A stretch of DNA of 46,457 bases from an uncultured Thermodesulfobacteriota bacterium (GTDB lineage: Bacteria > Desulfobacterota > WTBG01), in assembly GCA_964632275.1 (NCBI GenBank), contig CAZWCD010000001.1, positions 28,721 to 75,177 of the forward strand, read 5' to 3'. A model generated the notes under the pieces. It did not search any database, was not told where the DNA came from, and saw nothing but the letters and a program-made list of their open reading frames with translations. A program made the position numbers and the translations under genes. Positions 4,504-36,939 of this stretch are shown one piece after another (position 1 is the stretch's first letter; each line of letters starts with the position of its first letter).

Positions 4504-4574
4504 CGGGCTGTTGCAAAACGCCCATCTGATGTGTGGCTAAAAAACCCCTTCCCTGTGAGCCTTGAAACAACCGG

Positions 4575-12964: not shown

Positions 12965-13023
12965 CGGGATCTCCGCTCCGCCTGCTGTTCACCGCGTTTG
13001 TGATCGGTTGAAGCATCCATCCA

Positions 13024-15083: not shown

Positions 15084-15129
15084 GGCTTCCGTTTGTAATC
15101 CCGTCGCCTTCCCGGAGCAGACAATCTAC

Positions 15130-16458: not shown

Positions 16459-16464
16459 ACCCGT

Positions 16465-17908: not shown

Positions 17909-20900
17909 TGGATACCTTCTCCATCTTGACTGCTGCCTGATCAATCATTGCCTCTATCTGTTCGGTGGTGAAGTGGAGCGGGGAAATGGCTCCCACCGGA
18001 CAGGTCGCGGCGCAGGAACCGCACCCCTTGCAGGAGGCGGGGTTGATCGTCGCCTTGCGCGCATTGAATGCCAGGGACTCCAGACGCACCTTCCGGTCCT
18101 CCAGGCTGATCGCCCGGTAGGGGCAGACCTCTACGCACAGGCCGCACCCCTTGCAGCGCGTTTCATCGATGACCGATATGTTTGCCTCTGCCTCAACCTT
18201 TCCCCGGGCCAGCAGGATCCCGGCGCGCGAGCCCGCCGCATTGGCCTGGGCGATGGTCTCTTCGATGTGCTTGGGATAGTGGGCCATGCCGCAGAGAAAG
18301 ACGCCTTCGGTGGCAAAATCAACCGGGCGCAGCTTGACATGGGCCTCCAGGAAGAAACCTTCCTTGCTCAACGGGACCTTAAAAAGCTGACCCAGCTCCT
18401 TGTTGCTTTCCGGCGGCACGGTCGCCACTGAAAGCACCAGCAGGTCGGCTTCAAGGGAGAGCCGCGCATCAAGGAAGGGATCCCGGGCGCTGATCATCAG
18501 CCGGTCTCCATCAAAACCGGCCTCGGGTTTGTTCTGGAGGGTATAGCGGATAAACACCACCCCTGCGTCGCGCGCCTTCCGGTAATAGTCCTCCTTGAAT
18601 CCGTAGGTCATCATGTCGCGGTAGAGAACATAGACATTGACCTCCGGGTTGCGATCTTTCAGCGTCAGCGCGTTTTTTACCGCCTTGGTGCAGCATATCC
18701 GGCTGCAGTACGGGCGCTCCTCGCTGCGCGATCCCACGCACTGGATCATCACCACGTTTTTTGCCTGCTTGATCCGGGGGCTTTGTTTCTCCAGCTCGCC
18801 CTCCAGCTCTTTCTGGGTGAGGACGCGGCCGTCCTTTCCGTACCCGTATTCATCGGGCTTGAATTCCTGCGCCCCGCTGGCAATGATCGCCGCGCCGTGT
18901 TTGATCTCCACCGGTTCCTTCCCGCCCTTTAAGGCAACGGTTGAGGTGTAGCTTCCCACATATCCGGAGACCTTTTGGAGCTCGGCGCCGGTGTGCACGG
19001 TAATGCGGGGATGCTTCATCACCCGGTCGACGAGCGATGCCAGGTATTCCTGCACATCTGCGCCTTCCAGGGTGCTGTAAAGGGACCGTGCGGTGCCGCC
19101 GAGCTGCGCTTCCTTTTCCAGCAGGAAGACCGAAAAGCCCTGATCGGCAAGGTTGAGGGCGCTCACCATGCCGGCAATGCCCCCGCCGATAACCAGCGCG
19201 GAGGGATTGAGCTCCAGGGTAAGCCGCTTGAGCGGCACAATCAAGCCGGCCCGCGCCACCGCCATGCGCACCAGGTCCTTGGCCTTCTCGGTGGCGGCCG
19301 CTTTATCCTGCTGGTGCACCCAGCTGCACTGATCGCGGATGTTGGCCAGCTCAAACAGGTAGCGGTTCAGTCCCGCCTCCTGGATGGTTTCCTGAAAAAG
19401 CGGCTCGTGGGTGCGGGGCGAACATGAGGCAACGACCACCCGGTTGAGCTTGTGCTCGGCAATGAGCGCCTTGATTTTCTCCTGGGTATCCTGGGAGCAG
19501 CTGTAGAGGTTCTCTTCCGCGTACACCACGTTGGGAAGTTCCCGGGCAAGGGCAACCACCGATTTCACATCCACCACCGAACCGATATTGATGCCGCAGT
19601 GGCAGACAAACACACCGATGCGGGGGGTCTGCCCCGACACGTCCAACTCGGCGGGGAGCTTTTTCTCCTGCACCAGCATCTTGCGTGCGGGACTGAGCAG
19701 GGCCGCGGCAAGGCCGGCGGCGCCGCTTGACTGGGCCACCGTTTCCGGGATGTCCTTCGGCCCCTGGAAGAGGCCGGTCACAAAAATCCCCGGCTTGCTG
19801 GTATCGAGCGGGGAGAGCGTCCCCGAGCTGCAGAACCGGTGCTGGTTGAGATCAATCCCGAGCGCTGCGGCCAGCTCCCTGCTGCTCCGTGACGGCTCCA
19901 AGCCCACCGAGAGCACCACCAGCTCAAACTCCTCCTCCCGTATCTTTCCCTCTTCGCTGACGTACTTTATCAGGAGGTTGCGTGTATCCGGCAGCTCCTT
20001 GACCGACGATACATTGGAGGGAACAAAGCGTATGCCGTGCTTGTCCCGCGCCTCGGTGTAGTATGCGTCAAAGCCCTTGCCGTATGCCCGGATATCCATG
20101 TAAAAAATGGTGATGTCCATTGCCGACGCATGTTCCTTGGCAATGATCGACTCCTTCACCGCGTACATGCAGCACACCCCGGAGCAGTAGCCGTTGCCGT
20201 ACTGAAGGTCGCGCGAACCGACGCACTGGATGAAGGCGACGCGTTTGGGCTCGGCCTTGTCCGAAGGCCGCCGGACGTGTCCCTCATAGGGGCCCGAGGC
20301 CGAAAGCAGCCGCTCGAACTGGATGCTGGTGACCACGTTCTCGTAGCGGCCGTAGCCGAAGGGATATTTCCGGGCCGCATCGTATTCGTCAAACCCCGGC
20401 GACAGGATCACCGCGCCCACCGGGAGGTCCCGCACTTCCTCCTTCATCTCAAAGTTGACCGCCCCGGCCTTGCACACCTTGACGCAGAGCTGGCACTTGC
20501 CCTTGGTCAGGAAGCGGCAGTAGCGGGGATCGATGTGGTAGACATGGGGCACCGCCTGGGGATAGGGGATGGAGATCGCCCGGCGCTGGGAAAATCCCTC
20601 GTTGAACTCGTCGCTCACCTTCGAGGGGCATTTCTCGGCGCAGGCACCGCAGGCGACGCATTTGGCCGGGTCCACATAGGACGGCTTGCGCAGGACGGAA
20701 ACGGTGAAGTTGCCCGGCTCCCCGCTAATGCCGGTAATCTGTGAGTGGGTGAGGATTTCAATGTTGAGATGTCTGCCGCACTCCACCAGCTTGGGTGACA
20801 GGATGCACATGGAGCAGTCGTTGGTGGGAAAGGTCTTGTCCAGCTGGGCCATGGCGCCGCCAATGACCGGAGAGCGCTCCACCAGGTACACGAAGTACCC

Positions 20901-21005
20901 CGCGTCGGCCAGGTCCAGCGACGCCTGCACCCCGCCCACGCCCCCTCCCGCCACCAGGACGGATCCGACTATGGTGCGCTCCCGCGCCGCTTCCGGCTCT
21001 GTCAT
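17901..21005 (-). CDS. hdrA: large double-module HdrA-like flavo-iron-sulfur protein
   Basis: 1034 aa. Module 1 has '[17 protein letters not shown]', '[17 protein letters not shown]', 'FIQCVGSRD...[10 protein letters not shown]' and ferredoxin Cys motifs. The middle has '[14 protein letters not shown]'. Module 2 has '[16 protein letters not shown]' and '[23 protein letters not shown]'. The C-terminus carries '[12 protein letters not shown]' and '[12 protein letters not shown]'. Confidence 0.88.
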
Positions 21006-21854: not shown

Positions 21855-24290
21855 TTACTGGGTGCCGAGCGCCTTGATGGTTTCTTCCACCTCCTGGTCG
21901 CTGACGCTCTGCCGCAGCGCATCCATGCGCTTCATGACCTCGGCAAACCGCACGCCTTCCGCCGCGCTGATCCACTCAAGCTGCAGCCGCTCCGTCCGCA
22001 TGCCCAGCGTTTCCATCTTCTTGTGGATTTTGGCCACGCGCTTTTCCGTCCAGTGATTGGCGTTGATATAGTGACAGTCGCCGATGTGACAGCCGCTCAC
22101 CAGGATGACCGGGGCGCCCTTGCTGAACCCGCGCCACACGAAATCCTCATCAACCCGGCCCGAGCACATGGTGCGGATAATCCGCGCATTGGGCGGATAC
22201 TGCAGCCGGGAGACACCGGCAAAGTCGGCGCCGGCGTAGGAGCACCAGTTGCAGGCAAAAACCAGCACCTTCTCCCGGGGGCGCTCAGCCAGCATTGCGT
22301 CGATCTGCCCGGTGATCTGCTCGTCGGTGTAGTGATTCATGATGATGGCGCCGAACGGACATTCGGCGGCGCAGGTGCCGCAGCCGGCGCAGGCCGCCGC
22401 CGTGACCACGGCGGGGGCCTTTTGCTTGGTGTTGACCGTGATCGCATTATAAGGACATACCTCCGCGCACTTGCCGCAGGACCGGCAGTGCTCCTCGACC
22501 ACGGTTGAAATGATGGGCTCGGCAGTGATTTCGCCCCGGTGCATGAGCCGGATGGCCCTGCCGGCGGCGGCGGAGGCCTGGGTCACCGATTCCTTGATGT
22601 CCTTGGGCCCTTCAGCGCAGCCCGCAAAAAAGACGCCCCGGGTGGCGGCATCAACCGGCTGCAGCTTGGGATGGGCTTCAAGAAAGAATCCGTCCGGCGT
22701 GAGCTGCAGCCCGAGCATCTCCTGCAGCCGGTGGGTTTCGGCCGCCGGCTGCACCCCCAGCGCAAGAACGAGCATGTCCAGGTCGTAGCGGTCAATCCTG
22801 CCGGTGGCGGTGTTCTCGACCGCGACCTGCAGGCTTCCGTCAGGCAGCTCCTTCACCGTCCCGGGAAGGCCGCGCAGGTAGTGAACGCCGAGGCGGCGGC
22901 TGCGCATGTACAGGTCCTCGAAGCCCTTGCCGAAGGCGCGGATGTCGATATAAAACACCTTGATGCTCATGTCCGGGTAATGCTCCTTGAGCATGAGGGT
23001 GCTTTTGATGGTGTTCATGCAGCAGATGTTGGAGCAGTAGGTCCCTCCATTGCGCAGCGAGCGCGACCCCACGCACTGGATGAATCCCACCGAGCCCGGC
23101 CTTTTGCGATCTGTCGGCCGCACCAGTTCGCCCTGGGTGGGCCCCCCCGCGTTAATCAGGCGCTCCAGTTCAATGCTGGTGACCACGTTTTCAAACCGGG
23201 TGTAGCCGTACTCGTCAAGCTCCGCCGGGTTGTAGGGCTCGACGCCGGTGGCCACCACGATGGTTCCCACCTGTTCGGTCAGCTCCTCGTCGGACATGTG
23301 AAAGTTGATGCAGTGCTTCTGGCAGACCTCCAGGCACTTCGCGCAGACCGCCGGATTGAAGCCGAGGCACTCCTGGCTGTTGATCATGTAGGAGGACGGC
23401 ACCGCCTGGGGAAAGGGCTTGAAAATCGCCCGGCGCGAGGAAAGCCCGGCATTGTACTCATCCGGCCGCACCACCGGGCAGACGTTCACGCAGTCCCCGC
23501 AGGAGGTGCACTCGCGCTCATCCACGTAGCGGGCGCGCTTGCGCAGGGTGATCTTAAAATTGCCGACCGAGCCCTTGACGTCGACCACCTCGGTGAGCGT
23601 GTACAGCTTGATGCGGGGATGTCGACCGACATCCGTCATTTTGGGACCGAGTATTCATATGGAGCAGTCCATGGTGGGAAAGGTCTTGTCCAGCTGCGCC
23701 ATCAGCCCGCCGATGGAGGGCTGCCGTTCCACCAGGACCACCTCGTAGCCGCTGTCGGCAAGGTCAAGGGCGGCCTGGATGCCGGAGACGCCCCCGCCGA
23801 TCACCATGGTGCGCCGGGTGAGCGGCAGCGTCTCCTCCTCGAGGCTGCAGAGCGCGGCGGCCCGGCTGACCGCCATTTTCACCAGGTCGATGGCCTTCAG
23901 GGTTGCGGCCCCGGGATCGTGCATGTGCACCCAGCTGCACTGCTCGCGCAGGTTCGCCATTTCCATAAGGTAGGGATTGAGCCCGGCGCTCTGCATCATC
24001 TTGCGAAAGGTGGGCTCATGCAGCCGGGGCGAGCATGACGCGACCACCACCCGGTTTATCTCCGCCTCTTCGATGTCTTTGGCTATTTCCGTCTGACCCG
24101 GGGTTGAGCACGCATAGGCGATGACCTTGGTCAGCACGACCCCCGGCTCGCCTGCAGCGGCTTCGGCAACGCGCGCGCAGTCAACCGTCTGGGCGATGTT
24201 CATGCCGCAGCGGCAGACAAAGACCCCGATGCGGGGTGATTGCGCCGATGCGGCGGTTGCCGGCGTCACCTGCTGGCTTTGCGTTTTCAT
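21855..24290 (-). CDS. hdrA: HdrA / MvhD fusion protein (QmoB-like architecture), probable selenoprotein (UGA at codon 212)
   Basis: Two ORF-track ORFs (23655..24362 and 21855..23639) are in the same frame and separated only by the TGA at 23655-23657. The joined sequence 'DKTFPTMDCSI-U-ILGPKMTDVGRH' parallels '[24 protein letters not shown]' in 17901..21005. Start at ATG 24290 (RBS AAGGA). The C-terminal MvhD domain reads '[16 protein letters not shown]...VSGCHIGDCHY'. Confidence 0.8.
23617..23634 (-). promoter_or_regulatory. SECIS-like hairpin downstream of the hdrA UGA
   Basis: mRNA: GGAUGUC-GGUC-GACAUCC, a 7-bp stem with a GGUC tetraloop. The loop GU lies about 30 nt 3' of the UGA. Confidence 0.45.
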
Positions 24291-24336
24291 ATCCGTTTTC
24301 CTTTTGCACGTAAAGAGTGACCCGCAACCGGTGGAC

Positions 24337-25914
24337 TTACTCCCACCTGATGGTCCGGGCAAGCACGCCGGTCAGATCCATCATCTCCATTGTGATATCG
24401 TTTCCCCTGAAGGGATCCTCCATGGCGCAGGTAAGATGAATCTGGCACTTGGGGCATGAGGTCACCAGCAGATCGCTGCCGGTTGCGCGGGCCTGCTCCA
24501 GTCGCTTGACCTGCAGCGCCTTGCTGTACGCGTCGCACCCGGTCCAGGCGCTGTTGCCGCAGCAGATTGAGGCGCGGCCGTGGTCCTGCATTTCCCTGAA
24601 GCTATCCTGCCCCAGCCGTTCAATCAGCCGGCGGGGCAAATCGGGCCGGCCGTCAAACCGGCTCAACCGGCACGAGTCCTGGAAGGTCATGGATCGGCCG
24701 AGCCGGCTGAAGGCAACTTTTCCCTTGCTGATCTCCCGGTCGAGCAGCTCGTAGAGATGAATCACCTCGACGCCGGTCTCGACGCCGAATGCCGGGTAAT
24801 CGTGCTTGAAGGTCCGGTAGCACTCGGGGCAGGACGTCACCACCTGCTTGATGCCCCGCGCGCGCAGGGCCTCCACGTTCAGCCGCGCCAGGCGCAAAAA
24901 ACTGTCGCGGTCGCCGGACCAGAGCAGATCATGGCCGCAGCACCGCTCATCGGAGAGCAGCGCCGGCCGCATATCGAAGAAATTTAACAGCCGCAGGCTA
25001 TCGGCCAGGATGTCCCGCGTGCGCAGGTTCAGGAAATTCTGAAAAAAGAAATCAAAAAATGCGGCGCAGCCGCCCCAGTAGAGCATGGTGCTGCTGGGGT
25101 CAACCGCGATGTCCGGGGGAAGCCAGTCCCACCGCCGCGGGGTCAGCCGCGGGGCAGCGAGCGTTCGCTGCAGCGTCTGGAAAAAGCCGGCATGAGCCTG
25201 GGCCGGGCGGTCGCCGCGGTAATCCAGCGATATGCGCAGGTCGCGGACAAATTCCGAAAAGCGAACCGCCGACGGGCACCGCTCGTAGCACATGCCGCAG
25301 GTCAGGCACGAGGCAACCGCATCCTTCACCGCGGGCGAATCGGTATCGCCGGCAATAATCGACGAAGCGAGCGAGCGGGGCGAAAACGCCTTTCCCGACA
25401 GCGACAGCGGGCATGCCGATGTGCACTTGCCGCAGTCCTGGCAGGCAAACACGTCGTGCCGCTGCACAATGCCGGTCAGCGGCTCCTCAACCGGCGCTTC
25501 CGGCGCGGATGCCGCAATCGGGGTTTTGCCCAGCGCGCGAATTTCCGCGGTGAACCGTTTGAGAAATGCCAGCATGCCCTCATGCTCGTCGGGCAGAAAG
25601 GTTTCAAAGCGCAGGCGCTCGCGGTTCAGGCCGAGCAGGCCGAGGATTTCGCGGGTGTTCCCGATGTTCTTCTCCGAGGTCTCGGTGCCGCTGCCGTAGC
25701 GGCAGGCGCCCGGCCGGCACCCGGCAAGGGCCACGCCGTCCGCGCCGAGCTCAAAGGCCTTCAGCAGCAGGGCCCGGTTGATGCGGCCGGCGCAGGGCAC
25801 CCGGACCGCCTTTATTTCATCGGGTATATCGGCGGCCTGCTCCTGCAGGGTATGAAAGGCCGAGTGCGGCCCCCAGTTGCACAGATAGAGCAGTATGGTA
25901 AACGTATCCTTCAT
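24337..25914 (-). CDS. MvhD-like domain fused to an HdrD-like (2x[4Fe-4S] + CCG domains) oxidoreductase
   Basis: Start set at ATG 25914, which forms an ATGA overlap with the upstream stop. N-terminus 'FTILLYLCNWGPHS...VPCAGRIN...LAGCRPGACRY', then 'CQDCGKCTSACP' and 'CLTCGMCYERCP', then CCG motifs 'RCCGHDL' and 'ICCGNSAW'. Confidence 0.8.
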   Translation of the reverse strand: MKDTFTILLYLCNWGPHSAFHTLQEQAADIPDEIKAVRVPCAGRINRALLLKAFELGADGVALAGCRPGACRYGSGTETSEKNIGNTREILGLLGLNRERLRFETFLPDEHEGMLAFLKRFTAEIRALGKTPIAASAPEAPVEEPLTGIVQRHDVFACQDCGKCTSACPLSLSGKAFSPRSLASSIIAGDTDSPAVKDAVASCLTCGMCYERCPSAVRFSEFVRDLRISLDYRGDRPAQAHAGFFQTLQRTLAAPRLTPRRWDWLPPDIAVDPSSTMLYWGGCAAFFDFFFQNFLNLRTRDILADSLRLLNFFDMRPALLSDERCCGHDLLWSGDRDSFLRLARLNVEALRARGIKQVVTSCPECYRTFKHDYPAFGVETGVEVIHLYELLDREISKGKVAFSRLGRSMTFQDSCRLSRFDGRPDLPRRLIERLGQDSFREMQDHGRASICCGNSAWTGCDAYSKALQVKRLEQARATGSDLLVTSCPKCQIHLTCAMEDPFRGNDITMEMMDLTGVLARTIRWE

Positions 25915-28900
25915 GGGTTGCTTCCCGCTTCCGAAGGCAGCAATGCCTCCTCCAGCACCCGTTCGAGAAACGCGTGGTTGCGGAACGGGCTGTCGGCGGC
26001 ATTCGAGGGGCAGACCGAAATGCAGTTGCCGCACCCTTTACACAGGGCGTCATCCACCGATGCCACCCAGCCGCCCACGCCGTTTTGTTTATAGCTTATG
26101 GCCTGATACGGGCAGTACCTGCTGCACCTGCCGCAGCCGCGGCAGATGCTCTCGTCCACCACCACGGTGAACCCGCGGCTCGATCGCGGACCCTGGGGCA
26201 TGCTCGCGGCGGCAAGCGCTGCCGCGGCGGCGCCGCGTTCGCGGTCGGACACCCTGATGCCCGCCGGATCGGCGATGTACAGTCCCGACACCGATGTCGT
26301 GCCCGGATACATGAACGGAACGCCCACGCGGCCCGCCTGCTGCATCGATGAAATGATGTCGCGCCCGGGCAGCTCGGCCTGGTAGATATGCTTTATCTCT
26401 TCAGCGGCCTTCGCGCTCATGATGACCGCTCCCGCCTGAATAAACTGATCGGCGCCGGCCCCATCCTGAAACAGCACCTGAAAATCCCCGAGCATGCCGC
26501 GCACGCCGGTTACCCGCGCGGCGCTGAAGCAGTGTATGCCGGGATGCCCGGCGGCATCCCCGTCTTCCGCCCGGTTGAACCAGAAGACCTCGTACCCCAT
26601 CTGCGCGAGCACCTGGGCGCTGTGCGCCGCGGCTTCGGAGCTGCCGATGACGGCGGTGGTAAAGTTGTAGTTTCGCGCCGGAGAGGGCAGCGGCTTTAAC
26701 ATCAGCGCCCGTTCAATGGAGCTGTCGATCAGCTCCCGGAAGCGGGCGAGCGCCCGCTCCGGATGCATGCGCGCCAGCCGCAGCACTTCGCCGCGCAGGT
26801 TGCACATTTCAACCATGGACCGGCTCACGCCGGTTCCGGTAAAGAGCGCGGCCTTGAGGCGGCTGCGCTGGTCGGTGCAGGAGCTGCAGACAAAATTGAG
26901 CGAGCAGCATGCGCATGAGGCAAGCACGACCCTGGTTATCCCCTTTTCCCGGATGGAGCGCAGAATGGCGGCAGCTCCTTCATCAATGCACGCGGCGGTG
27001 ACGCTTTCGGCGTGCACGATCCCCTCCCGCCGGGGCAGCTCATTAATAGAGGCGGTCATCTCCTCAAGCCAGCCGAGTGCGTCGTTGCAGCGGCAGGCAA
27101 AGACGCCGATGCGCATGTCGGATGACAGCGCCGGGCCGGGAGGTGAAAATGAAACGCTGTGCCCCTTGGACCGCTGCGGGCTTCCGCCCAGGATCATCAT
27201 CGCCCGTGAGGCGGCGGCAAAACCGCGCACCACCAGGGAAAGGGTGTCCGACCCCGCGCTTTTGGTATCGTAGGCCCTGATGACGTCTTCTCCGGATATG
27301 CGATGGCCCGCGGCGGGATCGGCGATAATCACCACCCCGGCATTTTCAACGACTTCACGGGCGGGCTCATCGTGGGTAATTGCGCCGATCTGCGAGCAGG
27401 CGGCGGCGCACTGCAGGCACTGTGAACAGATGCCGCACTGCAGGCACCGCTCCGCTTCCCGCGCGGCCTGGTCGGCGCTCAGCCCCTGAGCCACTTCACG
27501 AAAAGTCGTGCGCCTCGCTTCGGGATGCAGAACCGCCATTTCCTCGCGGGTAAGCCGCGGCGCAGCGGCGGGAATGGGCTGATAATCCCTTTCATCCGGC
27601 CTTTGCGGCGGCGGGGGCAGGAAGTCCTTCTTGAAAACCGTCTGCAGAATCGAGCGCGCTGCATTCCGTCCCGAGGCCATGGCCTCAACCACCGATGTCG
27701 GTCCGGTAACCGCATCCCCTCCAGCCATGATGCGGTTCAGACCGGTTTTCATCCGCTCATCGATTACCAGGTAGCCCTGCCGGTTTACCTGCAGCCCGGC
27801 GCCCGCCGTGGGCGTAAGCGGACCGGCCTGGCCGATGGCGACATAGGCCCGGTCAAATGAAAGCACCTGCTGCGTGCCCGCGGGATCGGTAACCGGCCAG
27901 GCAATGCCGTTTGCATCGGGCGGACCGGGGATGGTTGGAACGCAGCAGATCTGTTCAAGCGCGCTCCCTCCTCCCTTGAATGCGACCACGCGCAGTTTAT
28001 CCCGGATGGTGACGCCCTCCGCGATGGCATCGGACACCTCTTCAGGATCGGCGGGAATGGCGTCCCGCGCAAACCAGGACAGCACGGTTACCGCGGCGCC
28101 GAGCCGCACCAGGGCGCGGGCCAGATCGAAGGCGCTGTTGCCGTCTCCGATGACCGCAACCCTGCCCTGCACCTCGCTGATCTCGCCGCGGTACAGCCGG
28201 TTCAGCGCGGCAAGGCAGCCGTCAACCCCCTGCAGATCCTCACCGGGCACGCCCAGCTTCCGGTCGAGCCAGCTGCCCGTGGCCAGGACGAGGAAAGCGA
28301 ACTTTTTCAGCAGACCGTCAAGCCCGAGGGAAAGGTCAACCGGATGACCGGTCACCAGCTGTACGCCGAGGTCCTGTATGTAGCGCAGGTCCTGATCGAG
28401 AATGTCGTCCGGCAGCCGGTACCGTCCGATGCCATAGCGCAGCAGGCCGCCCGCGAGCGTTTCCTTTTCATACACCGTTACCTCGCAGCCGTTCCGGGCG
28501 AGCTCCGCGGCGGCGGCGAGTCCGGCGGGACCCGAGCCGACCACGGCGACTTCTGTTTTTGGCGAAGTAACCGGGGCCGGTCGGTCCGCGGCGGCGCCAT
28601 TGGTTACCGCCGCGCTGTCGGTGACAAAGCGCTTGAGCGTGCGAATCGCAACCGGCGCATCAATGTCGGAGCGCCGGCATGCCGCCTCGCAGGGATGGGT
28701 GCAGATGCGCCCGCAAATGCCGGGCAGCACGTTTTCCCGGCGGATCATCTCAAGCGCCTCGGCGTATTTGCCCGCCTGCACCAGCGCGATGTAGCCCTGC
28801 GCGTTCACGCCCAAGGGACAGCGCTCCTGACAGGGGGGCGTCTTGGCTTTTTCAATCCGCGCCCGGCCGGGAATACTCCGGCGGCTTGCAATGCGTATCG

Positions 28901-29291
28901 CTTTTTTCCCGTCGGGCAGGTTGACCGGACACGCTTCAAGACACCTGCCGCAGAGCGTGCATTTTTCGGGATCGACGAAGGTCTGCTGCGGGGTGATGCG
29001 CACGGTGAATCCCTGGGTGCTGTGCTTGATGGAGTTGACCGTGGCCGGCATAAAAAGCCTGATGCCGGGATTACGCAGAATACGGATCAGCCCGGGGCGG
29101 TGGGCGAAATTGAAGCGCACCCCCGAGGCAAGGCGCCACTCGTCGCGATAAAATTTCTCGTTCAGATCCGGCTCGCCGTCAACCAGGGCGACCGGCACGC
29201 CCAGCTCGCCGAGCTTGTTGGCCGCGGCGATGCCTGCCGGGGTTGCACCCAGAATCATGACCCGCTGCAGCCTGCTTTTTTTACGACTCAT
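25911..29291 (-). CDS. HdrL-like multidomain flavo-Fe-S oxidoreductase (HdrA-like + GltD/NfnB-like NAD(P)H domain + ferredoxin domains)
   Basis: 1126 aa. 'VMILGATPAGIAAANKL'. The GltD-type segment is 'CQERCPLGVNAQGYI...LPGICGRICTHPCEAACRR' plus 'VAVVGSGPAGLAAAAELA'. Also 'CLQCGICSQCLQC', 'RIGVFACRCNDALGW', and C-terminal 'CRGCGRCSRYCP' and 'CKGCGNCISVCP'. Its start forms an ATGA overlap with the upstream gamma-subunit gene. Confidence 0.8.
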   Translation of the reverse strand: MSRKKSRLQRVMILGATPAGIAAANKLGELGVPVALVDGEPDLNEKFYRDEWRLASGVRFNFAHRPGLIRILRNPGIRLFMPATVNSIKHSTQGFTVRITPQQTFVDPEKCTLCGRCLEACPVNLPDGKKAIRIASRRSIPGRARIEKAKTPPCQERCPLGVNAQGYIALVQAGKYAEALEMIRRENVLPGICGRICTHPCEAACRRSDIDAPVAIRTLKRFVTDSAAVTNGAAADRPAPVTSPKTEVAVVGSGPAGLAAAAELARNGCEVTVYEKETLAGGLLRYGIGRYRLPDDILDQDLRYIQDLGVQLVTGHPVDLSLGLDGLLKKFAFLVLATGSWLDRKLGVPGEDLQGVDGCLAALNRLYRGEISEVQGRVAVIGDGNSAFDLARALVRLGAAVTVLSWFARDAIPADPEEVSDAIAEGVTIRDKLRVVAFKGGGSALEQICCVPTIPGPPDANGIAWPVTDPAGTQQVLSFDRAYVAIGQAGPLTPTAGAGLQVNRQGYLVIDERMKTGLNRIMAGGDAVTGPTSVVEAMASGRNAARSILQTVFKKDFLPPPPQRPDERDYQPIPAAAPRLTREEMAVLHPEARRTTFREVAQGLSADQAAREAERCLQCGICSQCLQCAAACSQIGAITHDEPAREVVENAGVVIIADPAAGHRISGEDVIRAYDTKSAGSDTLSLVVRGFAAASRAMMILGGSPQRSKGHSVSFSPPGPALSSDMRIGVFACRCNDALGWLEEMTASINELPRREGIVHAESVTAACIDEGAAAILRSIREKGITRVVLASCACCSLNFVCSSCTDQRSRLKAALFTGTGVSRSMVEMCNLRGEVLRLARMHPERALARFRELIDSSIERALMLKPLPSPARNYNFTTAVIGSSEAAAHSAQVLAQMGYEVFWFNRAEDGDAAGHPGIHCFSAARVTGVRGMLGDFQVLFQDGAGADQFIQAGAVIMSAKAAEEIKHIYQAELPGRDIISSMQQAGRVGVPFMYPGTTSVSGLYIADPAGIRVSDRERGAAAAALAAASMPQGPRSSRGFTVVVDESICRGCGRCSRYCPYQAISYKQNGVGGWVASVDDALCKGCGNCISVCPSNAADSPFRNHAFLERVLEEALLPSEAGSNP

Positions 29292-29884
29292 GCCGTCTTC
29301 CCCGTCTTGTCGCCCGCTTTTTTATCGCGGGTCTTCATCGTGGCGACGCCGTAATCCCATCCCCGGGTAAAGGCCTTGCGGTTCAGCTCTTCCGTTCCCC
29401 GGGGGACCATGGATGTCACCGCATCCTCGGCCGCCTTCCGGGAAATGGCCTTGGCAACCGAGGCAAAAAAACCGAGCATGACGATATTGGCAATCATGGT
29501 GCGGCCCATCTCCTCGGCCATGCGTGTCGCGGGGATGCCGTAGCACTCCAGCCCGCAGTCGCCGGGCCGGACCAGGTCCTGTTCGATCAACAGCAGCGTG
29601 TCGCTTTTTGCCGACCCCGCGAATTTTTCAAACCCGCTCTGCGACATGGCGACAAGAATGTCAGGCCGCCGCACATAGGGATAGCGAATCGGGTCCGGCG
29701 AGACGATGACCTGCGCGCTGCAGAACCCGCCTCGCGACTCCGGCCCGTATGACTGCACCATGGTGCTTTCCCGGTGGTCGCCGATGGCTGCCGCCCGGCC
29801 GACAATGCTGCCGATGAGCACAATGCCCTGCCCGCCGAATCCGGTAAAAACAATTTCTCTTTTTTCCAACCGCGCTGCTGTCAT
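29288..29884 (-). CDS. 2-oxoacid:ferredoxin oxidoreductase, gamma subunit
   Basis: 198 aa. 'IVFTGFGGQGIVLIGSIVGRAA' is typical of the Por/Kor gamma family. Confidence 0.85.
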   Translation of the reverse strand: MTAARLEKREIVFTGFGGQGIVLIGSIVGRAAAIGDHRESTMVQSYGPESRGGFCSAQVIVSPDPIRYPYVRRPDILVAMSQSGFEKFAGSAKSDTLLLIEQDLVRPGDCGLECYGIPATRMAEEMGRTMIANIVMLGFFASVAKAISRKAAEDAVTSMVPRGTEELNRKAFTRGWDYGVATMKTRDKKAGDKTGKTA

Positions 29885-29959
29885 GACCGATTACCTGAGC
29901 GATACATGTTTGCTTGCTGCTTACAATGCCTTCGAGTTGTTGAAAGCAACCTGCGCAGG

Positions 29960-30799
29960 CTATTCCTTGCGGTACAGCCGGTCATACATATCCTGCCAGG
30001 TGGGTCGATCCTCGTCGATGAAGGTGCCCAGCACGATGCCTTTCTTCATATCCAGGGTCGCATCCGCGGGACTGATGCCGTTTTTGATCAGGGTGCGGTT
30101 CTGGTAAATGGCCAGGGTGTCAAGCGGCTTTTCCTTGTTTCTGCGGCCGTAGTTCACCGGGCAGGGGGAAAGCACTTCGATAAAGGAGAACCCCTTGCGC
30201 TGCAGGCAGCGCACGATCGATTCCTTGATGTCGCGGGTGTGCAGGATGGTCCAGCGCGCGACATAGGTGGCCCCGGACGCCCAGGCAAGCAACGGCAGGT
30301 TGAAGGGAGACTCCGGGTTGCCCGAGGGCGTGGTGGTGGTCCGCGCCTGGCTGGGGGTTGTGGCCGCAACCTGCCCGCCGGTCATGCCGTAGTTCAGGTT
30401 GTTGATGCAGATGACGGTCATGTCGATGTTGCGCCGGGCGGCATGAATGAAATGATTGCCGCCGATGGCAAACAGGTCTCCGTCGCCGCTGAAGACAATC
30501 ATGTTGAGCGCGGGATTGGCGACCTTCATGCCGGTGGCAAAGGGGATTGCCCTCCCGTGGGTGGTGTGAAAGGAGTCCATTTTCGCGTAACCGGCGCCGC
30601 GCCCCGAGCAGCCGATGCCGGATACCATCACCGTTTTGTCCACATCAACCCCGCTGGCCTTGATTGCCTGGAGGCATGAGGAAAAGGCGGTCCCGATGCC
30701 GCAACCCGGACACCATATGTGCGGCATGCGATCGGTGCGCAGCAGGTCATCCAGCGGATGCACCATCTCGCGGTTCCGGTTGTCAAGCTTTTCAGCCAT
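29960..30799 (-). CDS. 2-oxoacid:ferredoxin oxidoreductase, beta (TPP-binding) subunit
   Basis: 279 aa. 'WCPGCGIGT', 'SGIGCSGR' and the 'GDGD' TPP-binding region. Overlaps the end of the alpha subunit gene by 8 nt. Confidence 0.9.
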   Translation of the reverse strand: MAEKLDNRNREMVHPLDDLLRTDRMPHIWCPGCGIGTAFSSCLQAIKASGVDVDKTVMVSGIGCSGRGAGYAKMDSFHTTHGRAIPFATGMKVANPALNMIVFSGDGDLFAIGGNHFIHAARRNIDMTVICINNLNYGMTGGQVAATTPSQARTTTTPSGNPESPFNLPLLAWASGATYVARWTILHTRDIKESIVRCLQRKGFSFIEVLSPCPVNYGRRNKEKPLDTLAIYQNRTLIKNGISPADATLDMKKGIVLGTFIDEDRPTWQDMYDRLYRKE

Positions 30800-31952
30800 G
30801 GGGTGAGAAGGCCTCCCGGATGGTTTTCACTGCGTCATCGGGGGAGATGATGGTTCCCCCCGCATGTCCGACCAGAACGGCGGGGACCCTGCCCCCGGCG
30901 CAGCGCTCAACCTCAAGATGCATCTGCCCCAAGTTTATCTCCACCGTCACAAATCCCCTGACCCGCGCGGCCAGCTCCCGTATCTGCTTTTCCGGAAACG
31001 GCCATACCGTGATCAGCCGCAGCATGCCCGCCTTGATGCCTTCGCGCCGCGCATCCTCAACCGCGGCGAACCCGGTGCGCGCCGAGCACCCGTATGAAAT
31101 GATGGCAATCTCGGCATCGTCAAGCATGAATGCCTCGGTGCGGACGATGGCATCAAGGTTGTTCCGGATTTTTCCGGTTATCCGGTTCAGCATGGCCGCG
31201 TGCGCCTCGGCATGCATGGCCGGGTAGCCCTGCTCGTCGTGGGTGAGCCCGGTAATGTGCACACGATAGCCGTCTCCCGCAGCAGGCATGGGGGCGATGC
31301 CCCCCGGCCCGGCCAAAAACGGCCGGAATCGCTCCTTTGATCCTGAAGGCTTTGTGCGAAACGCGGTTTTTATCTTTTTCGCGTCGGGAATGACCACCCG
31401 CTCGCTCATGTGCCCCACGATCTCATCGGTCATCACCAGCACCGGAACGCGGTAGGTTTCGGAGAGATTGAAGGCATCAATGGTTTGGTAAAATATTTCC
31501 TGCGGCGACATGGGGGCCAGCGCGATGATTTCATACGGGCCGTGCGAACCCCACCGCGCCTGCATCATATCGCCCTGGGCGCCGAGCGTCGGGAGGCCGG
31601 TCGAGGGCCCACCCCGCTGCACGTTGACGATGACACAGGGGGTTTCGGTGCAGAGACCGAGCCCCAGGTTTTCCATCATCAGGCTGAAGCCGGGGCCGGA
31701 GGTGGCGGTCATGCTCTTGACCCCTGCCCAGGAACCGCCGAGCACGGCGGCGATGGCGGCGATCTCATCCTCCATCTGGATATAGGTGCCGCCCACCTCG
31801 GGAAGGCGCTCGGCCAGGTGCTCGGCCACTTCAGTTGCCGGAGTGATGGGATAGCCCGCGAAAAATCTGCATCCTGCGGCAACGGCGCCTTCGGCGCAGG
31901 CCTCATCTCCGGTCATAAAGTGCTCGCCGGTAAGCACGGTCTTGTCCGCCAT
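30792..31952 (-). CDS. 2-oxoacid:ferredoxin oxidoreductase, alpha subunit
   Basis: 386 aa. 'GDEACAEGAVAAGCRFFAGYPITPATE...MEDEIAAIAAVLGGSWAG...TSGPGFSLM'. Confidence 0.9.
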   Translation of the reverse strand: MADKTVLTGEHFMTGDEACAEGAVAAGCRFFAGYPITPATEVAEHLAERLPEVGGTYIQMEDEIAAIAAVLGGSWAGVKSMTATSGPGFSLMMENLGLGLCTETPCVIVNVQRGGPSTGLPTLGAQGDMMQARWGSHGPYEIIALAPMSPQEIFYQTIDAFNLSETYRVPVLVMTDEIVGHMSERVVIPDAKKIKTAFRTKPSGSKERFRPFLAGPGGIAPMPAAGDGYRVHITGLTHDEQGYPAMHAEAHAAMLNRITGKIRNNLDAIVRTEAFMLDDAEIAIISYGCSARTGFAAVEDARREGIKAGMLRLITVWPFPEKQIRELAARVRGFVTVEINLGQMHLEVERCAGGRVPAVLVGHAGGTIISPDDAVKTIREAFSPHG

Positions 31953-31961
31953 AATTACCTC

Positions 31962-32309
31962 TTACGCTTGCTCCGGGCGATGGTGTTCGAAAAATGGCGC
32001 CTTGTCATTGGATTCAGGTGCGCGGGTTTTTTCACCGCTGGGATCTTCAATTGAATAGATGGCAAATTCAGGGCAAATAATTTCGCAATAATGACAATTT
32101 ACACATTCATGGGGAAGTGCCGCATGGGGAGGATGATACCCCTTTTTATTGAATTTATCTGAAACCTCAAGCACGTTTTTGGGGCAGAAATTGATGCAGT
32201 ATCCGCACCCCTTGCATCTCTCTTCTAATATAAATACAATACCCCTTTTAACTTCAATGCTTCCAGAATCAAGGGGTACCCTCCAGAAATCCATGGACCC
32301 TTCTCCCAA
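31962..32309 (-). CDS. 2-oxoacid:ferredoxin oxidoreductase, delta (2x[4Fe-4S] ferredoxin) subunit
   Basis: 115 aa (the start could instead be the ATG at 32294). 'CKGCGYCINFCP' and 'CVNCHYCEIICP'. The delta-alpha-beta-gamma order resembles oorDABC-type operons. Confidence 0.85.
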   Translation of the reverse strand: MGEGSMDFWRVPLDSGSIEVKRGIVFILEERCKGCGYCINFCPKNVLEVSDKFNKKGYHPPHAALPHECVNCHYCEIICPEFAIYSIEDPSGEKTRAPESNDKAPFFEHHRPEQA

Positions 32310-32362
32310 AAAATCTAAAGATCATTATTCTGTTCGTGTTGTCGCAGGTTAATTATTCGTCT

Positions 32363-32370
32363 ATTATACA
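32363..32370 (-). promoter_or_regulatory. extended -10 promoter element candidate for the kor-hdr supercluster
   Basis: The minus strand reads TGTATAAT (TGn + TATAAT) about 55 nt upstream of the delta-subunit start, in an AT-rich divergent region. I could not identify a clear -35. Confidence 0.35.
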
Positions 32371-32652
32371 GAAAAAGTCAACCACATTTTTTAAAAGGCT
32401 GACTTTTTGATAATACCCCCCAATTTTTTGCGGGGGGATGAGATTATATATGGATTATGCAATCAAGGAGCATAATAACAAACAGTGTATTGAGGTCAAC
32501 CAATTGCAGGGCGCTGATTTCACAGATGAATGTAGTTTCATTTCATTCTGGTTGGAGGTGAATTGAAATAGCGTCTTGACAGTACGGTGGAAAAGACATA
32601 GAAAGACGGCAAATAGAATGATGTTTCTTAAATATTTCATAGTGAGCCCTTT

Positions 32653-35553: not shown

Positions 35554-36939
35554 TTACTTCCCGTATTTATCCCAGTGGGATTTGAATAGGGCGTTTTCAT
35601 CGGGCTTGTTTTCCGGAATCGGCGAGGATACCCAGGTGTAGTTGACCATGTGCTTCCAGGTGATGTTTTCCGAGACAATGTTGTTGCCCCAAGTGCCGCA
35701 GCTTAAGGACATGGTAAAGGGCATGCCGTTGGTAAAGGATCCGCTGTTGGCAAGGCACTGCGGCTGCCGGACCATCATCCGGCTGACATGGGCCATTTCC
35801 GCCAGCTCTTTGATCCGGGCCTCATTGGTGCTGTGGATGCTGCAGCAGTGGCCTTCGCCGCGCACGGTCAGGATCTTTTTCAGGTAATCGAGCGCCTCGC
35901 TGAAGGCGGTGAATTTCCACAGGGTGATGACCGGGGACAGCTTCTCGTCGGCAAACTTTTCCGTGCTGACCGGATTCTCCCCGATCACCATGAGGAAGGT
36001 GGTGCTTTCCGGAACGGTGATGCCGGCGAGCTCGGCGATTTTTTTGGCTGACCGCGCCACCACCTTGTCGTTGATGTGTTCGCCGTCCGGCCAGATCGCC
36101 GCTTTCAGCTTCGCTTTTTCTTCCGGCGAGCACAGGTAGCCGCCCCGGGCCTTGAAGCCGGCCAGCATGCCGTCCCATTGTGAGGCATGGATGACCGCCG
36201 AATTTTCCGCCGAACAGGAGGTGGCATTGTCAAAGGTTTTGCTCAGGAATATTTTTTCCGCGGCGTCGTTGACGTCGGCGGTTTCGTCAATAATGCTTAC
36301 CGAGTTGCCGGCCCCGACGCCGTAGGCAGGCTTGCCGCTTGAGTAGGCCGCCTTCACCGACTGGGTGCCGCCGGTTGAGATTACCAGGTCGGCCGCAGCC
36401 ATCAGCGCCTGAATGTCCTCAATGTAGGGCCGTTCCATAACCTGCAGCAGATCCACCGGCGCGCCGACTTTCTCCAGCCCCTTGCGCATGAAATCAACCG
36501 CCAGCGTGCTGCAGCGCCGGGCGATCATGTGCGGAGCAAAAATAATGGCGTTGCGCGTTTTCAGGGCGAAGACGCCCTTCACCATCGGGGTGGCGGTGGG
36601 GTTGGTGCACGGGGTCGGCGCAAAGATGACGCCGACCGGCTTGATCACCTTGAAAATGCCCTTGGCTTTGTCCTCGTCGACGATGCCGGTGGTCTTCACG
36701 CCGGCCATGTCCCGCAGCGCCCCCAGCACCTTGTTGCGGTGCTTGGCCAGCTTGTTTTCATAGACCCCCATCTTGGTTTCCTTGACTGCCATGTCCGCGC
36801 ATTTGGCGGCGTTTTCAGGCTTGATCGCCTCCCAGGCGGCAGCCAACACCATTTCATCAACTTTTTCCTGGGGCCAGTGTTCCACGACGGCCTGGGCCGT
36901 GCGCGCCTTGTCCAGCAGTTGTTGCAGTTCTTCCTTCAT
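35554..36939 (-). CDS. acylating (CoA-dependent type) aldehyde dehydrogenase, SucD/EutE/AdhE-N family
   Basis: Start set to ATG 36939 (RBS GGGAGG). 'FDNATSCSAENS' is the catalytic Cys region and 'LSCGTWGNNIVSENIT' is the C-terminal family motif. 461 aa. Confidence 0.85.
   Translation of the reverse strand: MKEELQQLLDKARTAQAVVEHWPQEKVDEMVLAAAWEAIKPENAAKCADMAVKETKMGVYENKLAKHRNKVLGALRDMAGVKTTGIVDEDKAKGIFKVIKPVGVIFAPTPCTNPTATPMVKGVFALKTRNAIIFAPHMIARRCSTLAVDFMRKGLEKVGAPVDLLQVMERPYIEDIQALMAAADLVISTGGTQSVKAAYSSGKPAYGVGAGNSVSIIDETADVNDAAEKIFLSKTFDNATSCSAENSAVIHASQWDGMLAGFKARGGYLCSPEEKAKLKAAIWPDGEHINDKVVARSAKKIAELAGITVPESTTFLMVIGENPVSTEKFADEKLSPVITLWKFTAFSEALDYLKKILTVRGEGHCCSIHSTNEARIKELAEMAHVSRMMVRQPQCLANSGSFTNGMPFTMSLSCGTWGNNIVSENITWKHMVNYTWVSSPIPENKPDENALFKSHWDKYGK

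Follow-up and report, generated by a model that had tools for sequence, protein, structure and literature searches.

A conserved block of 2-oxoacid oxidoreductase and heterodisulfide reductase-type genes as a candidate electron-bifurcating system

Introduction

A 46,457-nt stretch of contig CAZWCD010000001.1 (GCA_964632275.1; hereafter the window), from an uncultured Thermodesulfobacteriota bacterium (GTDB WTBG01), carries the genes of a four-subunit 2-oxoacid:ferredoxin oxidoreductase (OFOR; here Kor) that run directly into genes related to heterodisulfide reductase (Hdr). An earlier note, made from the DNA letters, had read this arrangement as one transcription unit, and possibly one complex, of the electron-bifurcating kind. 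Here we ask whether these genes belong together and, if so, what they are likely to encode.

Results and discussion

Gene order and junctions

Seven genes, korD, korA, korB, korG, hdrL, mvhD-hdrD, and Sec-hdrA-mvhD, follow one another in the same direction on the minus strand (Table 1), and the genes and coordinates named in the earlier note were all recovered. Direct reading bore out the ATGA overlaps of korG with hdrL (29288-29291) and of hdrL with mvhD-hdrD (25911-25914), and the coordinates gave the 46-nt spacing between mvhD-hdrD and hdrA. The genes korD and korA are 9 nt apart, korA and korB overlap by 8 nt, and korB and korG are separated by 75 nt. The korD start is backed by an N-terminus, MxYWRxPLD, that is conserved in 16 homologues. 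For hdrL, an alternative stored gene call (P0001) begins 11 codons downstream and gives 1115 aa; on sequence grounds we favour the overlapping ATG, because the N-terminal residues are kept in homologues and 48 of 57 loci have an ATG or GTG right at the korG stop. Two putative promoters, TTGACC-16-TATTAT (32499-32472) and TTGACT-18-AATAAT (32381-32352), fall inside the gap of ~340 nt between korD and a divergent gene at 32653. After the block, the window also holds a second, unrelated hdr operon (12680-21005).

Table 1. Features of the kor-hdr block, in positions of the window.
Feature	Coordinates	Strand	Remarks
AT-rich leader, two sigma-70-like promoter matches	32352..32499	-	upstream of korD; consensus matches only
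korD	31962..32294	-	delta subunit, 110 aa; ORF 31962-32309, start set to ATG 32294
korA	30792..31952	-	alpha subunit, 386 aa
korB	29960..30799	-	beta subunit, 279 aa
korG	29288..29884	-	gamma subunit, 198 aa
hdrL, short form	25911..29291	-	1126 aa
mvhD-hdrD fusion	24337..25914	-	525 aa
hdrA-mvhD fusion with selenocysteine	21855..24290	-	811 aa; final gene of conserved block
Sec codon of hdrA, in-frame TGA	23655..23657	-	

Conservation of the block

The linkage of kor to hdrL, whose loss in relatives would by the earlier note have spoken against its reading, was followed through 54 named public loci with the short HdrL form, with counts limited to loci that had enough upstream or downstream DNA. 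All four kor genes were upstream in 42 of 42 such loci, and downstream MvhD/HdrD was present in 38 of 38 and Sec-HdrA in 37 of 38. The order kor-hdrL-mvhD/hdrD-hdrA was kept in all eight relatives with a full-length homologue, at HdrL identities from 81% to 31%. The holders were labelled Desulfobacterota (many orders) and Chloroflexota, with one truncated locus labelled Ca. Abyssobacteria; Desulfonema limicola, D. ishimotonii, and strain NaphS2 are cultured examples. Across 57 loci, the korG stop and the hdrL start overlapped by 4 nt in 30 and by 1 nt in 8, and stood 1-3 nt apart in 10, which places the two signals within 4 nt of each other in 48 loci, and this was retained at ~30% HdrL identity. 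The linkage itself held down to ~30% HdrL identity and in two phyla. No locus examined with the long HdrL form (about 1410-1495 aa) had kor upstream.

This genome is rich in hdr-like genes, the second hdr operon among them, and that is the one observation that would suit redox genes without a functional tie having come together by chance where genes are dense. However, order and spacing are repeated across phyla among unrelated flanks, and in other genomes the second hdr operon does not stay beside the block, which also indicates that the synteny method separates conserved from accidental neighbours. We therefore regard chance adjacency without a functional link as extremely improbable; the arrangement, seen wherever a related locus extends far enough, is far beyond chance. 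The flanks are genome-specific (sensor kinase, AzlC, M56 peptidase, FGGY kinase, aldehyde dehydrogenase), so the block moves as a unit. Judged from gene order, the seven genes form one inherited unit, and its intact recurrence in at least two phyla suggests that it probably encodes one electron-bifurcating machine.

The Kor subunits

KorD contains Fer4_7/Fer4 domains with two [4Fe-4S] motifs, and its best NCBIfam matches, OGOR_delta and OorD, both scored under their cut-offs. KorA matched POR_N (6e-71), PFOR_II, and NF006412 ('2-oxoacid:acceptor oxidoreductase subunit alpha'; 568 bits, cut-off 411), and has a YPITP motif at residues 34-38; the closest solved chains were 1yd7 (4.9e-116), 8ys5 ('2-oxoglutarate synthase'), and 6n2n. 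KorB is predicted to be the beta subunit with thiamine diphosphate and a [4Fe-4S] cluster: it has a TPP_enzyme_C domain (1e-32) and a GDG-x26-NN motif at residue 105, and Cys30, Cys33, Cys64, and Cys213 are taken as the cluster ligands. Its best NCBIfam match was the OorB-type PRK09628 (241 bits, under cut-off). KorG matched PF01558 (POR, 1.7e-29), and KorG homologues of Desulfobacterota share a conserved Lys/Arg-rich C-terminal tail. The 2-oxoacid couple of Kor would most likely be 2-oxoglutarate/succinyl-CoA.

The block-linked KorA is a distinct paralogue, with other Kor paralogues at most 50% identical to it. Among 40 relatives searched, nine genomes had a KorA of at least 60% identity, and HdrL was downstream in eight; in the ninth, the KorA match lay at a contig end and HdrL was not found. 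These results bear on a second explanation, that Kor and the Hdr-type proteins are co-regulated and physically separate enzymes. Kor would then make or use free reduced ferredoxin, HdrL-MvhD/HdrD-HdrA would be a bifurcating complex linked to ferredoxin, NAD(P)H, and a disulfide, like FlxABCD-HdrABC, and the operon would only balance their amounts. KorD indeed looks like a standard delta subunit and carries no extra domain, no Kor-HdrL fusion protein was present among the best 120 homologues, and most known OFORs work with soluble ferredoxin or flavodoxin. The genome has five further OFOR loci, so ferredoxin-mediated coupling is feasible too. However, those other loci could themselves serve the ferredoxin pool, the block has no ferredoxin gene, the linked Kor paralogue was never seen apart from HdrL in the genomes searched, and the stop/start overlap of korG and hdrL persists in distant homologues. 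We consider separate enzymes unlikely.

The HdrL short form

HdrL had been described as a combination of HdrA-like, GltD/NfnB-like NAD(P)H, and ferredoxin domains. The NAD(P)H-FAD module (residues 143-632, NfnB/StnC type) stands up well: its FAD motif GSGPAG and NAD(P)H motif GDGNSA are invariant across the family, and residues 151-628 matched the solved chains 9bov, 8oh5, 9n5u, 4ylf, and 5jca at 1e-62 to 1e-87. In Foldseek, an AF2 model (pLDDT 82.9, pTM 0.78) matched best StnC and, in NfnABC, the subunit with the NfnB-like module. A [4Fe-4S] motif precedes the module (Cys111-121), and a ferredoxin domain with two [4Fe-4S] motifs ends the protein (residues 1043-1100; solved HdrA chains matched residues 992-1109). 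The HdrA-like domain survives only in part, as a Rossmann piece at residues 9-100, a homologue of the HdrA N-terminal domain with extra Cys at 727-830, and a second Rossmann piece at 878-1020. The FAD motifs of both Rossmann pieces have decayed and the segment with the Cys197/Sec motif is missing. By these motifs the HdrA-like portion is a degenerate scaffold, the NfnB/StnC-type module is likely the sole flavin site of HdrL, and an HdrA-type bifurcating flavin is therefore to be expected only in the downstream Sec-HdrA. All five solved relatives have the NADPH motif YRR(T) after the NAD(P)H Rossmann strand, where HdrL instead reads SWFA.

MvhD-HdrD and Sec-HdrA

The fusion protein MvhD-HdrD comprises FlpD/MvhD (3e-31), Fer4_17/Fer4_8, and CCG domains, the last in two stretches. 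There are four Cys in its MvhD part and two CxxCxxCxxxC motifs, and both CCG motifs of its HdrD part are complete (C283..C325-C326-G..C362xxC365 and C415..C451-C452-G..C487xxC490). In more distant homologues, MvhD and HdrD are encoded by separate genes. The next two open reading frames (23655-24362 and 21855-23639) merge into a single HdrA2 match once the in-frame TGA is read as selenocysteine, with 1172 bits against NF040770 (cut-off 1100). The selenocysteine is residue 212, in DKTFPTMDCSI-U, a position that we take to be that of Cys197 in methanogen HdrA, and hdrA is split at the same place in the public loci. The parts expected of a bifurcating module, namely 2-oxoacid/ferredoxin chemistry, a pyridine-nucleotide site, and a CCG-type disulfide site, are thus real, with intact cofactor motifs in Kor, in the NAD(P)H-FAD module of HdrL, and in HdrD.

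A complete Sec-HdrA also bears on a third explanation, a non-bifurcating 2-oxoacid:NAD(P)+ oxidoreductase in which HdrL would hand Kor electrons downhill to NAD(P)+, and HdrD and HdrA would give them another downhill exit, to a disulfide, with nothing to couple the two energetically. Enzymes of this kind are known: the five-subunit phenylglyoxylate dehydrogenase PadEFGHI works with NAD+ and the Kor of Azoarcus with NADP+. The NCBIfam families of NADH-dependent OFORs (PadE/G/I) match the Kor subunits weakly. The only intact flavin site of HdrL is of the GltD/NfnB type, which works without bifurcation in glutamate synthase and dihydropyrimidine dehydrogenase, and electrons at ~-500 mV can reduce NAD(P)+ and a disulfide alike without coupling. 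However, among solved chains HdrL comes closest to bifurcating ones, the subunits StnC and those of NfnABC (1e-78 to 1e-87, against 1e-41 for GltD), and Sec-HdrA, whose known role is bifurcation, would be superfluous in such an enzyme and is nonetheless kept nearly throughout. This explanation seems to us improbable.

Proposed electron-bifurcating system

The explanation to which we give most weight, at about even confidence, is that the seven genes encode one electron-transfer system, a flavin-based electron-bifurcating (in reverse, confurcating) enzyme that links NAD(P)H, a disulfide, and a 2-oxoacid couple. HdrL would be the pyridine-nucleotide module: hydride would pass between its FAD and NAD(P)H (probably NADH), and the FAD would feed a chain of iron-sulfur clusters. 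The [2Fe-2S] domains of MvhD would relay electrons to the flavin of Sec-HdrA, from which the high-potential branch would run to the two non-cubane clusters of HdrD and to disulfide reduction. The low-potential branch, with no release to free ferredoxin, would pass via KorD to Kor, the paralogue dedicated to this system. Overall, the enzyme would catalyse 2 NAD(P)H + RS-SR + acyl-CoA + CO2 <-> 2 NAD(P)+ + 2 RSH + 2-oxoacid + CoA.

The redox spacing fits bifurcation, with the 2-oxoacid couple at ~-500 mV, NAD(P)H at ~-320 mV, and the disulfide at high potential, as known from Mvh-Hdr, Flx-Hdr, and Nfn. The HdrL module is homologous to those that carry the flavin in NfnAB, StnABC, and NfnABC, bifurcating enzymes of solved structure, which points the same way. 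Since HdrL and HdrA provide two candidate bifurcating flavins, the actual wiring may differ from this scheme; we infer the physical association, electron route, substrates, and direction of the system. The usual bacterial Hdr substrate is DsrC, and a search of this genome (87.8% complete) turned up neither dsrA nor DsrC, so that substrate is not available as an explanation.

Comparison with known systems

The MvhADG-HdrABC complex and the Fdh-Hdr-Fmd supercomplex of methanogens (5odc, 7bkb) resemble the proposed system in HdrA flavin bifurcation, a relay through the [2Fe-2S] cluster of MvhD, and a CCG-type disulfide site. In the Fmd supercomplex, low-potential electrons are channelled directly to the CO2-fixing enzyme via ferredoxin-like domains, and by analogy Kor may be supplied likewise. 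However, an NAD(P)H flavoprotein here takes the place of the hydrogenase or formate dehydrogenase as donor module, HdrB and HdrC appear as a single HdrD that is fused to MvhD, CO2 would be fixed by a thiamine-diphosphate OFOR, and the disulfide cannot be CoM-S-S-CoB. NfnAB, StnABC, and NfnABC share FAD, NAD(P)H, and cluster motifs with HdrL, whereas the present system has no NfnA partner and embeds the module in an HdrA-like scaffold. FlxABCD-HdrABC of Desulfovibrio is an NADH-dependent Hdr, with NADH as the proposed bifurcation donor, a disulfide and ferredoxin as acceptors, and DsrC as the assumed substrate; its NADH module is FlxA/NuoF-like, unlike the NfnB-like module of HdrL, and it has no OFOR attached.

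HdrL of Desulfobacterium autotrophicum HRM2 is also a large HdrA/glutamate-synthase-type fusion with an NADH-binding site and mvhD as the next gene, proposed as the NADH entry to Hdr chemistry, and has dsr or fdh genes as neighbours (Strittmatter et al. 2009, PMC2702500). We take this classical HdrL to be the long form, which matches only residues 1-657 of the present protein, a short form with degenerate HdrA flavin sites. The HdrA-NfnB fusions HdrA9-11 of ANME-1 archaea have an NfnB-like insertion of ~500 residues inside the inserted ferredoxin domain of HdrA (Chadwick et al. 2022, PMC9012536), as the present HdrL has its module between the Cys111-121 and Cys616-632 motifs. However, the archaeal proteins are reported to retain the HdrA FAD residues, whereas HdrL has lost the HdrA-type FAD and Cys197 motifs, and OFOR genes beside HdrA9-11 were not reported in that study.

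The only published mention of such a block that we found is one line on Syntrophobacter fumaroxidans, with neither a conservation analysis nor a function. There, the 'HdrAL/POR' cluster Sfum_0012-0018 (seven locus tags) is described in one sentence as a heterodisulfide reductase of the HdrA/HdrL type that goes together with a 2-oxoacid (pyruvate):ferredoxin oxidoreductase, termed POR, and was detected in no proteome condition (Sedano-Nunez et al. 2018, PMC5947623). Like the present block, it combines Hdr with an oxidoreductase for a 2-oxoacid in seven genes, and we infer that it is the counterpart; its non-detection in the proteomes would then count against the proposed system. The block described here also occurs in five Syntrophobacteraceae MAGs, with HdrL identities of 52-55%. 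The kor-hdr block is probably an uncharacterised electron-bifurcating machine.

Organization of the kor-hdrL gene block

The block comprises seven genes in the same orientation on the minus strand, running from 32309 to 21855 of the window. The earlier note, which had proposed a coupled kor-hdrL-mvhD-hdrD unit, gave two ATGA overlaps and a gap of 46 nt, and these matched exactly on re-reading. The start of korD is most likely ATG 32294 rather than TTG 32309, as judged from 16 homologues that open with 'MxYWRxPLD' at this ATG. The stored gene call for HdrL (P0001, 1115 aa) places the start 11 codons inside the open reading frame (window 29258–29291). Because the first 11 residues are conserved and other genomes, as a rule, have an ATG or GTG directly adjoining the korG stop, ATG 29291 is favoured and the korG/hdrL overlap is taken as real. 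korD is preceded by an AT-rich gap of 340 nt that contains sigma-70-like promoter matches. A terminator scan gave 11 matches against 12.1 expected, no more than chance, and all inside coding sequence.

Genes of the block (window positions) and segments of the HdrL protein (residues)
Feature	Position	Strand	Content
korD	31962-32294	-	two [4Fe-4S] motifs
korA	30792-31952	-	POR_N, PFOR_II, YPITP motif
korB	29960-30799	-	thiamine-diphosphate motif GDG..NN, four Cys
korG	29288-29884	-	PF01558
hdrL	25911-29291	-	1126 aa
mvhD-hdrD	24337-25914	-	525 aa
hdrA-mvhD	21855-24290	-	in-frame TGA at 23655-23657
HdrL	9-100		Rossmann-like piece, homologue of start of HdrA flavin domain
HdrL	111-121		one CxxCxxCxxxC motif
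HdrL	143-632		NfnB-type module: invariant FAD motif GSGPAG, NAD(P)H motif GDGNSA, Cys-rich end 616-632
HdrL	727-830		homologue of HdrA N-terminal cluster domain, four extra Cys
HdrL	878-1020		second Rossmann-like piece
HdrL	1043-1100		ferredoxin domain, two [4Fe-4S] motifs, like HdrA C-terminus

In the window, an open reading frame for a putative acylating aldehyde dehydrogenase (35554-36981) lies about 3 kb before the start of the block, and at one public locus (L056) an aldehyde dehydrogenase gene (3028-4311) adjoins the block on its upstream side. Two instances do not suffice to claim a link.

Conservation and distribution of the block

The earlier note had made its proposal depend on conservation of the kor-hdrL linkage in relatives, and the linkage was conserved in all eight related genomes with full-length HdrL and in every short-form locus with enough upstream DNA. 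Full-length HdrL homologues, with identities from 81% to 31%, were found in eight of 40 related genomes. The kor genes lay upstream of HdrL in each of the eight (in one, G002, as korG, korB and the end of korA before the contig ended), mvhD/hdrD lay downstream in each, and hdrA was also present where the contig reached. A species-level scan with one genome per species yielded 80 loci, of which 54 had the short full-length HdrL form. Among these short-form loci, korD, korA, korB and korG were all present in 42 of 42 with at least 3.4 kb of upstream sequence, and MvhD/HdrD in 38 of 38 with at least 4.5 kb downstream. The selenocysteine HdrA-MvhD fusion (Sec-HdrA) was directly next in 37 of the latter 38 and further on in the remaining one (L068). 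The korG stop and hdrL start, compared in 57 loci, overlapped by 4 nt in 30 and by 1 nt in 8, and were separated by 1–3 nt in 10. Such synteny counts exclude chance adjacency of the block genes, an explanation that we consider extremely improbable.

A second hdr operon follows the block in the window (12680-21005, with tandem HdrA, Sec-MvhD and HdrBC-like genes) and was considered as a possible member. It was absent 3' of hdrA in all 43 loci reaching that far. Since this operon adjoins the block nowhere but in the window, the conserved unit is exactly seven genes. The genes flanking the block, compared by Pfam annotation of the loci, were unrelated between genomes, and this heterogeneity ruled them out as a clue to the substrate.

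Holders of the block labelled as Desulfobacterota included Desulfobacterales (among them Desulfonema limicola), Syntrophobacterales, Desulfatiglandales, Desulfarculus and Syntrophaceae, with the proviso that MAG labels may be imprecise. The block was also present in five Chloroflexota/Anaerolineae MAGs, with one copy on a 704-kb contig, and a single truncated locus in Ca. Abyssobacteria contained kor and then the beginning of hdrL. Among 401 genomes drawn evenly from across the phylum, 42 (~1 in 10) had a single copy of the C-terminal half of HdrL. A congeneric genome with 98% completeness gave no HdrL match at E <= 1e-100, and the only Kor paralogue was 48% identical. The block is an accessory, patchily distributed unit, with the caveat that absences were scored on incomplete genomes. 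Given short HdrL in about one tenth of the sampled genomes of the phylum and in several Chloroflexota, it may be relevant to how energy is budgeted in anoxic habitats with a low energy supply. Among cultured organisms, the protein database names Desulfonema ishimotonii, D. limicola and strain NaphS2 as holders, which makes the function of the block directly testable.

In four loci (L011 and L012, from relatives G033 and G034, and L029 and L058), korA, korB, hdrL and mvhD-hdrD were split into pieces in different frames with high protein similarity. In relatives assembled into few long contigs, these splits look like long-read indel errors rather than pseudogenes.

A dedicated 2-oxoacid oxidoreductase

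All four subunits of a 2-oxoacid:ferredoxin oxidoreductase (OFOR) were recognizable. The alpha subunit contained the POR_N and PFOR_II domains with the YPITP motif, and scored 568 bits with NF006412 (cut-off 411). The beta subunit matched TPP_enzyme_C (1e-32), with GDG at residue 105 followed by NN, and with Cys30, 33, 64 and 213 for a [4Fe-4S] cluster. Gamma and delta subunits were also present, and the order D-A-B-G is that of the Kor/OorDABC type. The Oor models were the best specific matches for alpha, beta and delta, all below cut-off, and a generic model scored higher for gamma (OorA 391 bits against a cut-off of 579, OorB 241 against 364, with OorC and OGOR_delta likewise below). The closest solved chains were of the KGOR/OGOR type. 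Taken together, the gene order, the sub-threshold Oor matches and the nearest solved chains favour 2-oxoglutarate as the likeliest candidate for the acid used by this Kor.

A KorA search of the 40 relatives separated two classes. Sequences with 60–75% identity occurred in nine genomes, and HdrL was downstream in eight of them; the ninth copy lay at a contig end in a genome that was 76% complete. The second class, with at most 50% identity, had no linkage to HdrL in these relatives. By this sequence comparison, the Kor of the block is a dedicated paralogue, and the window's own genome has six OFOR alpha loci in total. At one Syntrophaceae locus (L059), a second OFOR alpha/beta pair (2570-4691) lay directly upstream of the kor-hdrL block.

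In the Chloroflexota/Anaerolineae block, korB and korG were fused into one gene of 525–527 aa (L070:2778-4361, L075:6396-7973). Two loci with a Desulfobacteraceae/Desulfobacterales label, L069 and L071, had the same fusion. L070 and L075 also had two tandem HdrL paralogues (L070:4433-7705 and 7839-11207) before mvhD, hdrD and Sec-hdrA. No KorG-HdrL fusion occurred among the best 120 HdrL homologues, which were all 1108–1158 aa, and the corresponding open reading frames of L075 were also separate. Kor and the Hdr proteins could be distinct enzymes encoded in one operon and linked by ferredoxin, as the ordinary appearance of KorD and the absence of such fusions would allow, but this arrangement fits poorly with a dedicated Kor paralogue and with the conserved stop/start overlap of korG and hdrL, and we regard it as rather unlikely.

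The C-terminus of KorG (window 29288-29340) is a Lys/Arg-rich tail with the consensus 'LKGRxKKAxGxxG', here 'MKTRDKKAGDKTGKTA', which is kept in the Desulfobacterota block and absent from the Chloroflexota block. This tail could be a putative docking peptide.

Architecture of HdrL

Four sources gave the layout of HdrL: Pfam domains, a sequence search of the PDB, BLASTP comparison with both HdrA proteins encoded in the window, and an alignment of 29 sequences. A single polypeptide unites segments homologous to HdrA with ferredoxin domains and an NAD(P)H module of the GltD/NfnB type, and the following gene begins with an MvhD domain. The order of segments within HdrL is the arrangement described by Chadwick et al. 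(PMC9012536). The NfnB/GltD-type module (Fer4_20 and Pyr_redox_2) carries glycine motifs for both FAD and NAD(P)H, in which G252, G254, G257, G382, G384 and A387 were invariant in the 29 sequences. It was closest to the matching parts of NfnABC and StnABC, solved enzymes that bifurcate electrons (9bov, 8oh5, 9n5u; 1e-78 to 1e-87), followed by NfnB (1e-62) and GltD (1e-41). The AF2 model of HdrL (pLDDT 82.9) had the same NfnABC/StnABC enzymes as its best fold matches.

The 'HdrA-like domain' described in the earlier note was borne out only in part. Segments homologous to HdrA are present, but the features of the bifurcating HdrA flavoprotein are lost: the GxGxxG fold motif reads GATPAG and GSSEAA in the two halves, and the 'DKTFPTxDCSxC' segment with Cys197 is missing from both. 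Only G15 and G883 of the HdrA-like motif positions were invariant in the family. As both HdrA-like pieces lack GxGxxG and 'GG..DKTFPTxDCSxC', HdrL probably binds a single flavin, of the NfnB type, and the rest of the protein is probably an HdrA-shaped iron-sulfur scaffold. Four extra invariant cysteines (C795, C796, C802 and C805) lie within residues 793–805 (window 25911-26810), where HdrA has none. One possibility is that they replace in cis the Cys197 ligand which a partner protein provides to HdrA; another is that they bind an additional cluster.

A 'YRR(T)' segment, which we take to bind the 2'-phosphate of NADPH, occurs in each of the five solved relatives. HdrL reads 'SWFA' here, and distant homologues read 'GIE' or 'CWR'. 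The different sequence hints at NADH rather than NADPH as the nucleotide, or at a relaxed specificity.

A long HdrL form of ~1410–1495 aa, found in Pelotomaculum, Desulfacinum and Dehalococcoidia, among others, matched only residues 1–657 of the window HdrL and was never preceded by kor. A complex prediction for KorD, KorG and HdrL residues 1–650 scored 0.01, which speaks neither for nor against association.

HdrD, Sec-HdrA and the disulfide

The MvhD-HdrD fusion contained four cysteines in its MvhD domain, two ferredoxin-type motifs (CxxCxxCxxxC) and two complete CCG motifs (Cx(n)CCGx(n)CxxC). With both CCG motifs complete, the disulfide-reducing site known from HdrB is intact in HdrD. The more distant homologues encode MvhD and HdrD separately, in two genes. 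The last protein of the block, Sec-HdrA, scored 1172 bits with the HdrA model NF040770 (cut-off 1100) when TGA was read as U, and 'DCSI-U' was found at residue 212. Its selenocysteine presumably occupies the Cys197 position of HdrA.

DsrC is the usual proposal for the disulfide of bacterial Hdr systems. Neither dsrA nor DsrC was found in the window's genome, a 3.07-Mb MAG that is 87.8% complete, so that their absence is not proven. DsrC is therefore not supported as the disulfide of the block, and sulfate reduction may not be part of the host's metabolism. The same genome has acetyl-CoA synthase (CdhC) and many hdr-like genes.

The block could instead encode a plain 2-oxoacid:NAD(P)+ oxidoreductase resembling PadEFGHI, with an extra disulfide outlet. 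Retention of a complete Sec-HdrA in 37 of 38 loci is left unexplained by such an enzyme, which we consider unlikely.

Possible mechanism and comparison with known systems

The conserved and tightly spaced block, the dedicated Kor paralogue, the NAD(P)H flavin module of the bifurcating Nfn/Stn kind, the complete HdrA, the complete CCG site and the two MvhD relay domains were all read from sequence. From these features, we infer that the proteins of the block form one electron-transfer system, probably a bifurcating one of the Hdr type to which a new module has been joined. In such a system, NAD(P)H (about -320 mV) would be the middle partner and the disulfide the high-potential partner, while the couple of 2-oxoacid and acyl-CoA + CO2 (about -500 mV) would be the low-potential partner, reached via KorD and not through free ferredoxin. 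The system might drive reductive carboxylation or, in the opposite direction, confurcate electrons from the 2-oxoacid and from thiols onto NAD(P)+. One speculative and doubtful version of the former is a ferredoxin-free, bifurcation-driven 2-oxoacid synthase, in which the Hdr flavin would split NAD(P)H electrons between the disulfide and KorD for reductive carboxylation of an acyl-CoA, for example of succinyl-CoA to 2-oxoglutarate.

The HdrL protein type dates from the genome paper of D. autotrophicum (PMC2702500). Our literature search found an earlier mention of the kor-hdrL cluster only in the S. fumaroxidans proteome paper (PMC5947623), where one sentence reports 'HdrAL/POR (Sfum_0012-0018)' as undetected. 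The search returned no paper on kor-hdrL conservation and no description of short and long HdrL forms, degenerate HdrA sites or a dedicated Kor paralogue.

A thiamine-dependent 2-oxoacid oxidoreductase joined to an Hdr system would be a new coupling, with a direct tie between the NAD(P)H and thiol/disulfide pools and a central carbon step, the interconversion of 2-oxoacid and acyl-CoA + CO2. In Hdr-type bifurcating enzymes, the known donor modules are hydrogenase, formate dehydrogenase, F420 or NADH, and the known low-potential acceptor is free ferredoxin, or formylmethanofuran dehydrogenase in methanogens. The proposed scheme parallels MvhADG-HdrABC, with HdrL replacing the hydrogenase. It also parallels the methanogen Hdr-Fmd supercomplex, with Kor replacing formylmethanofuran dehydrogenase. 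If the 2-oxoacid synthase reading were true, the block would represent a novel means of meeting the energy cost of CO2 fixation at one step and a bacterial counterpart of that methanogen supercomplex.
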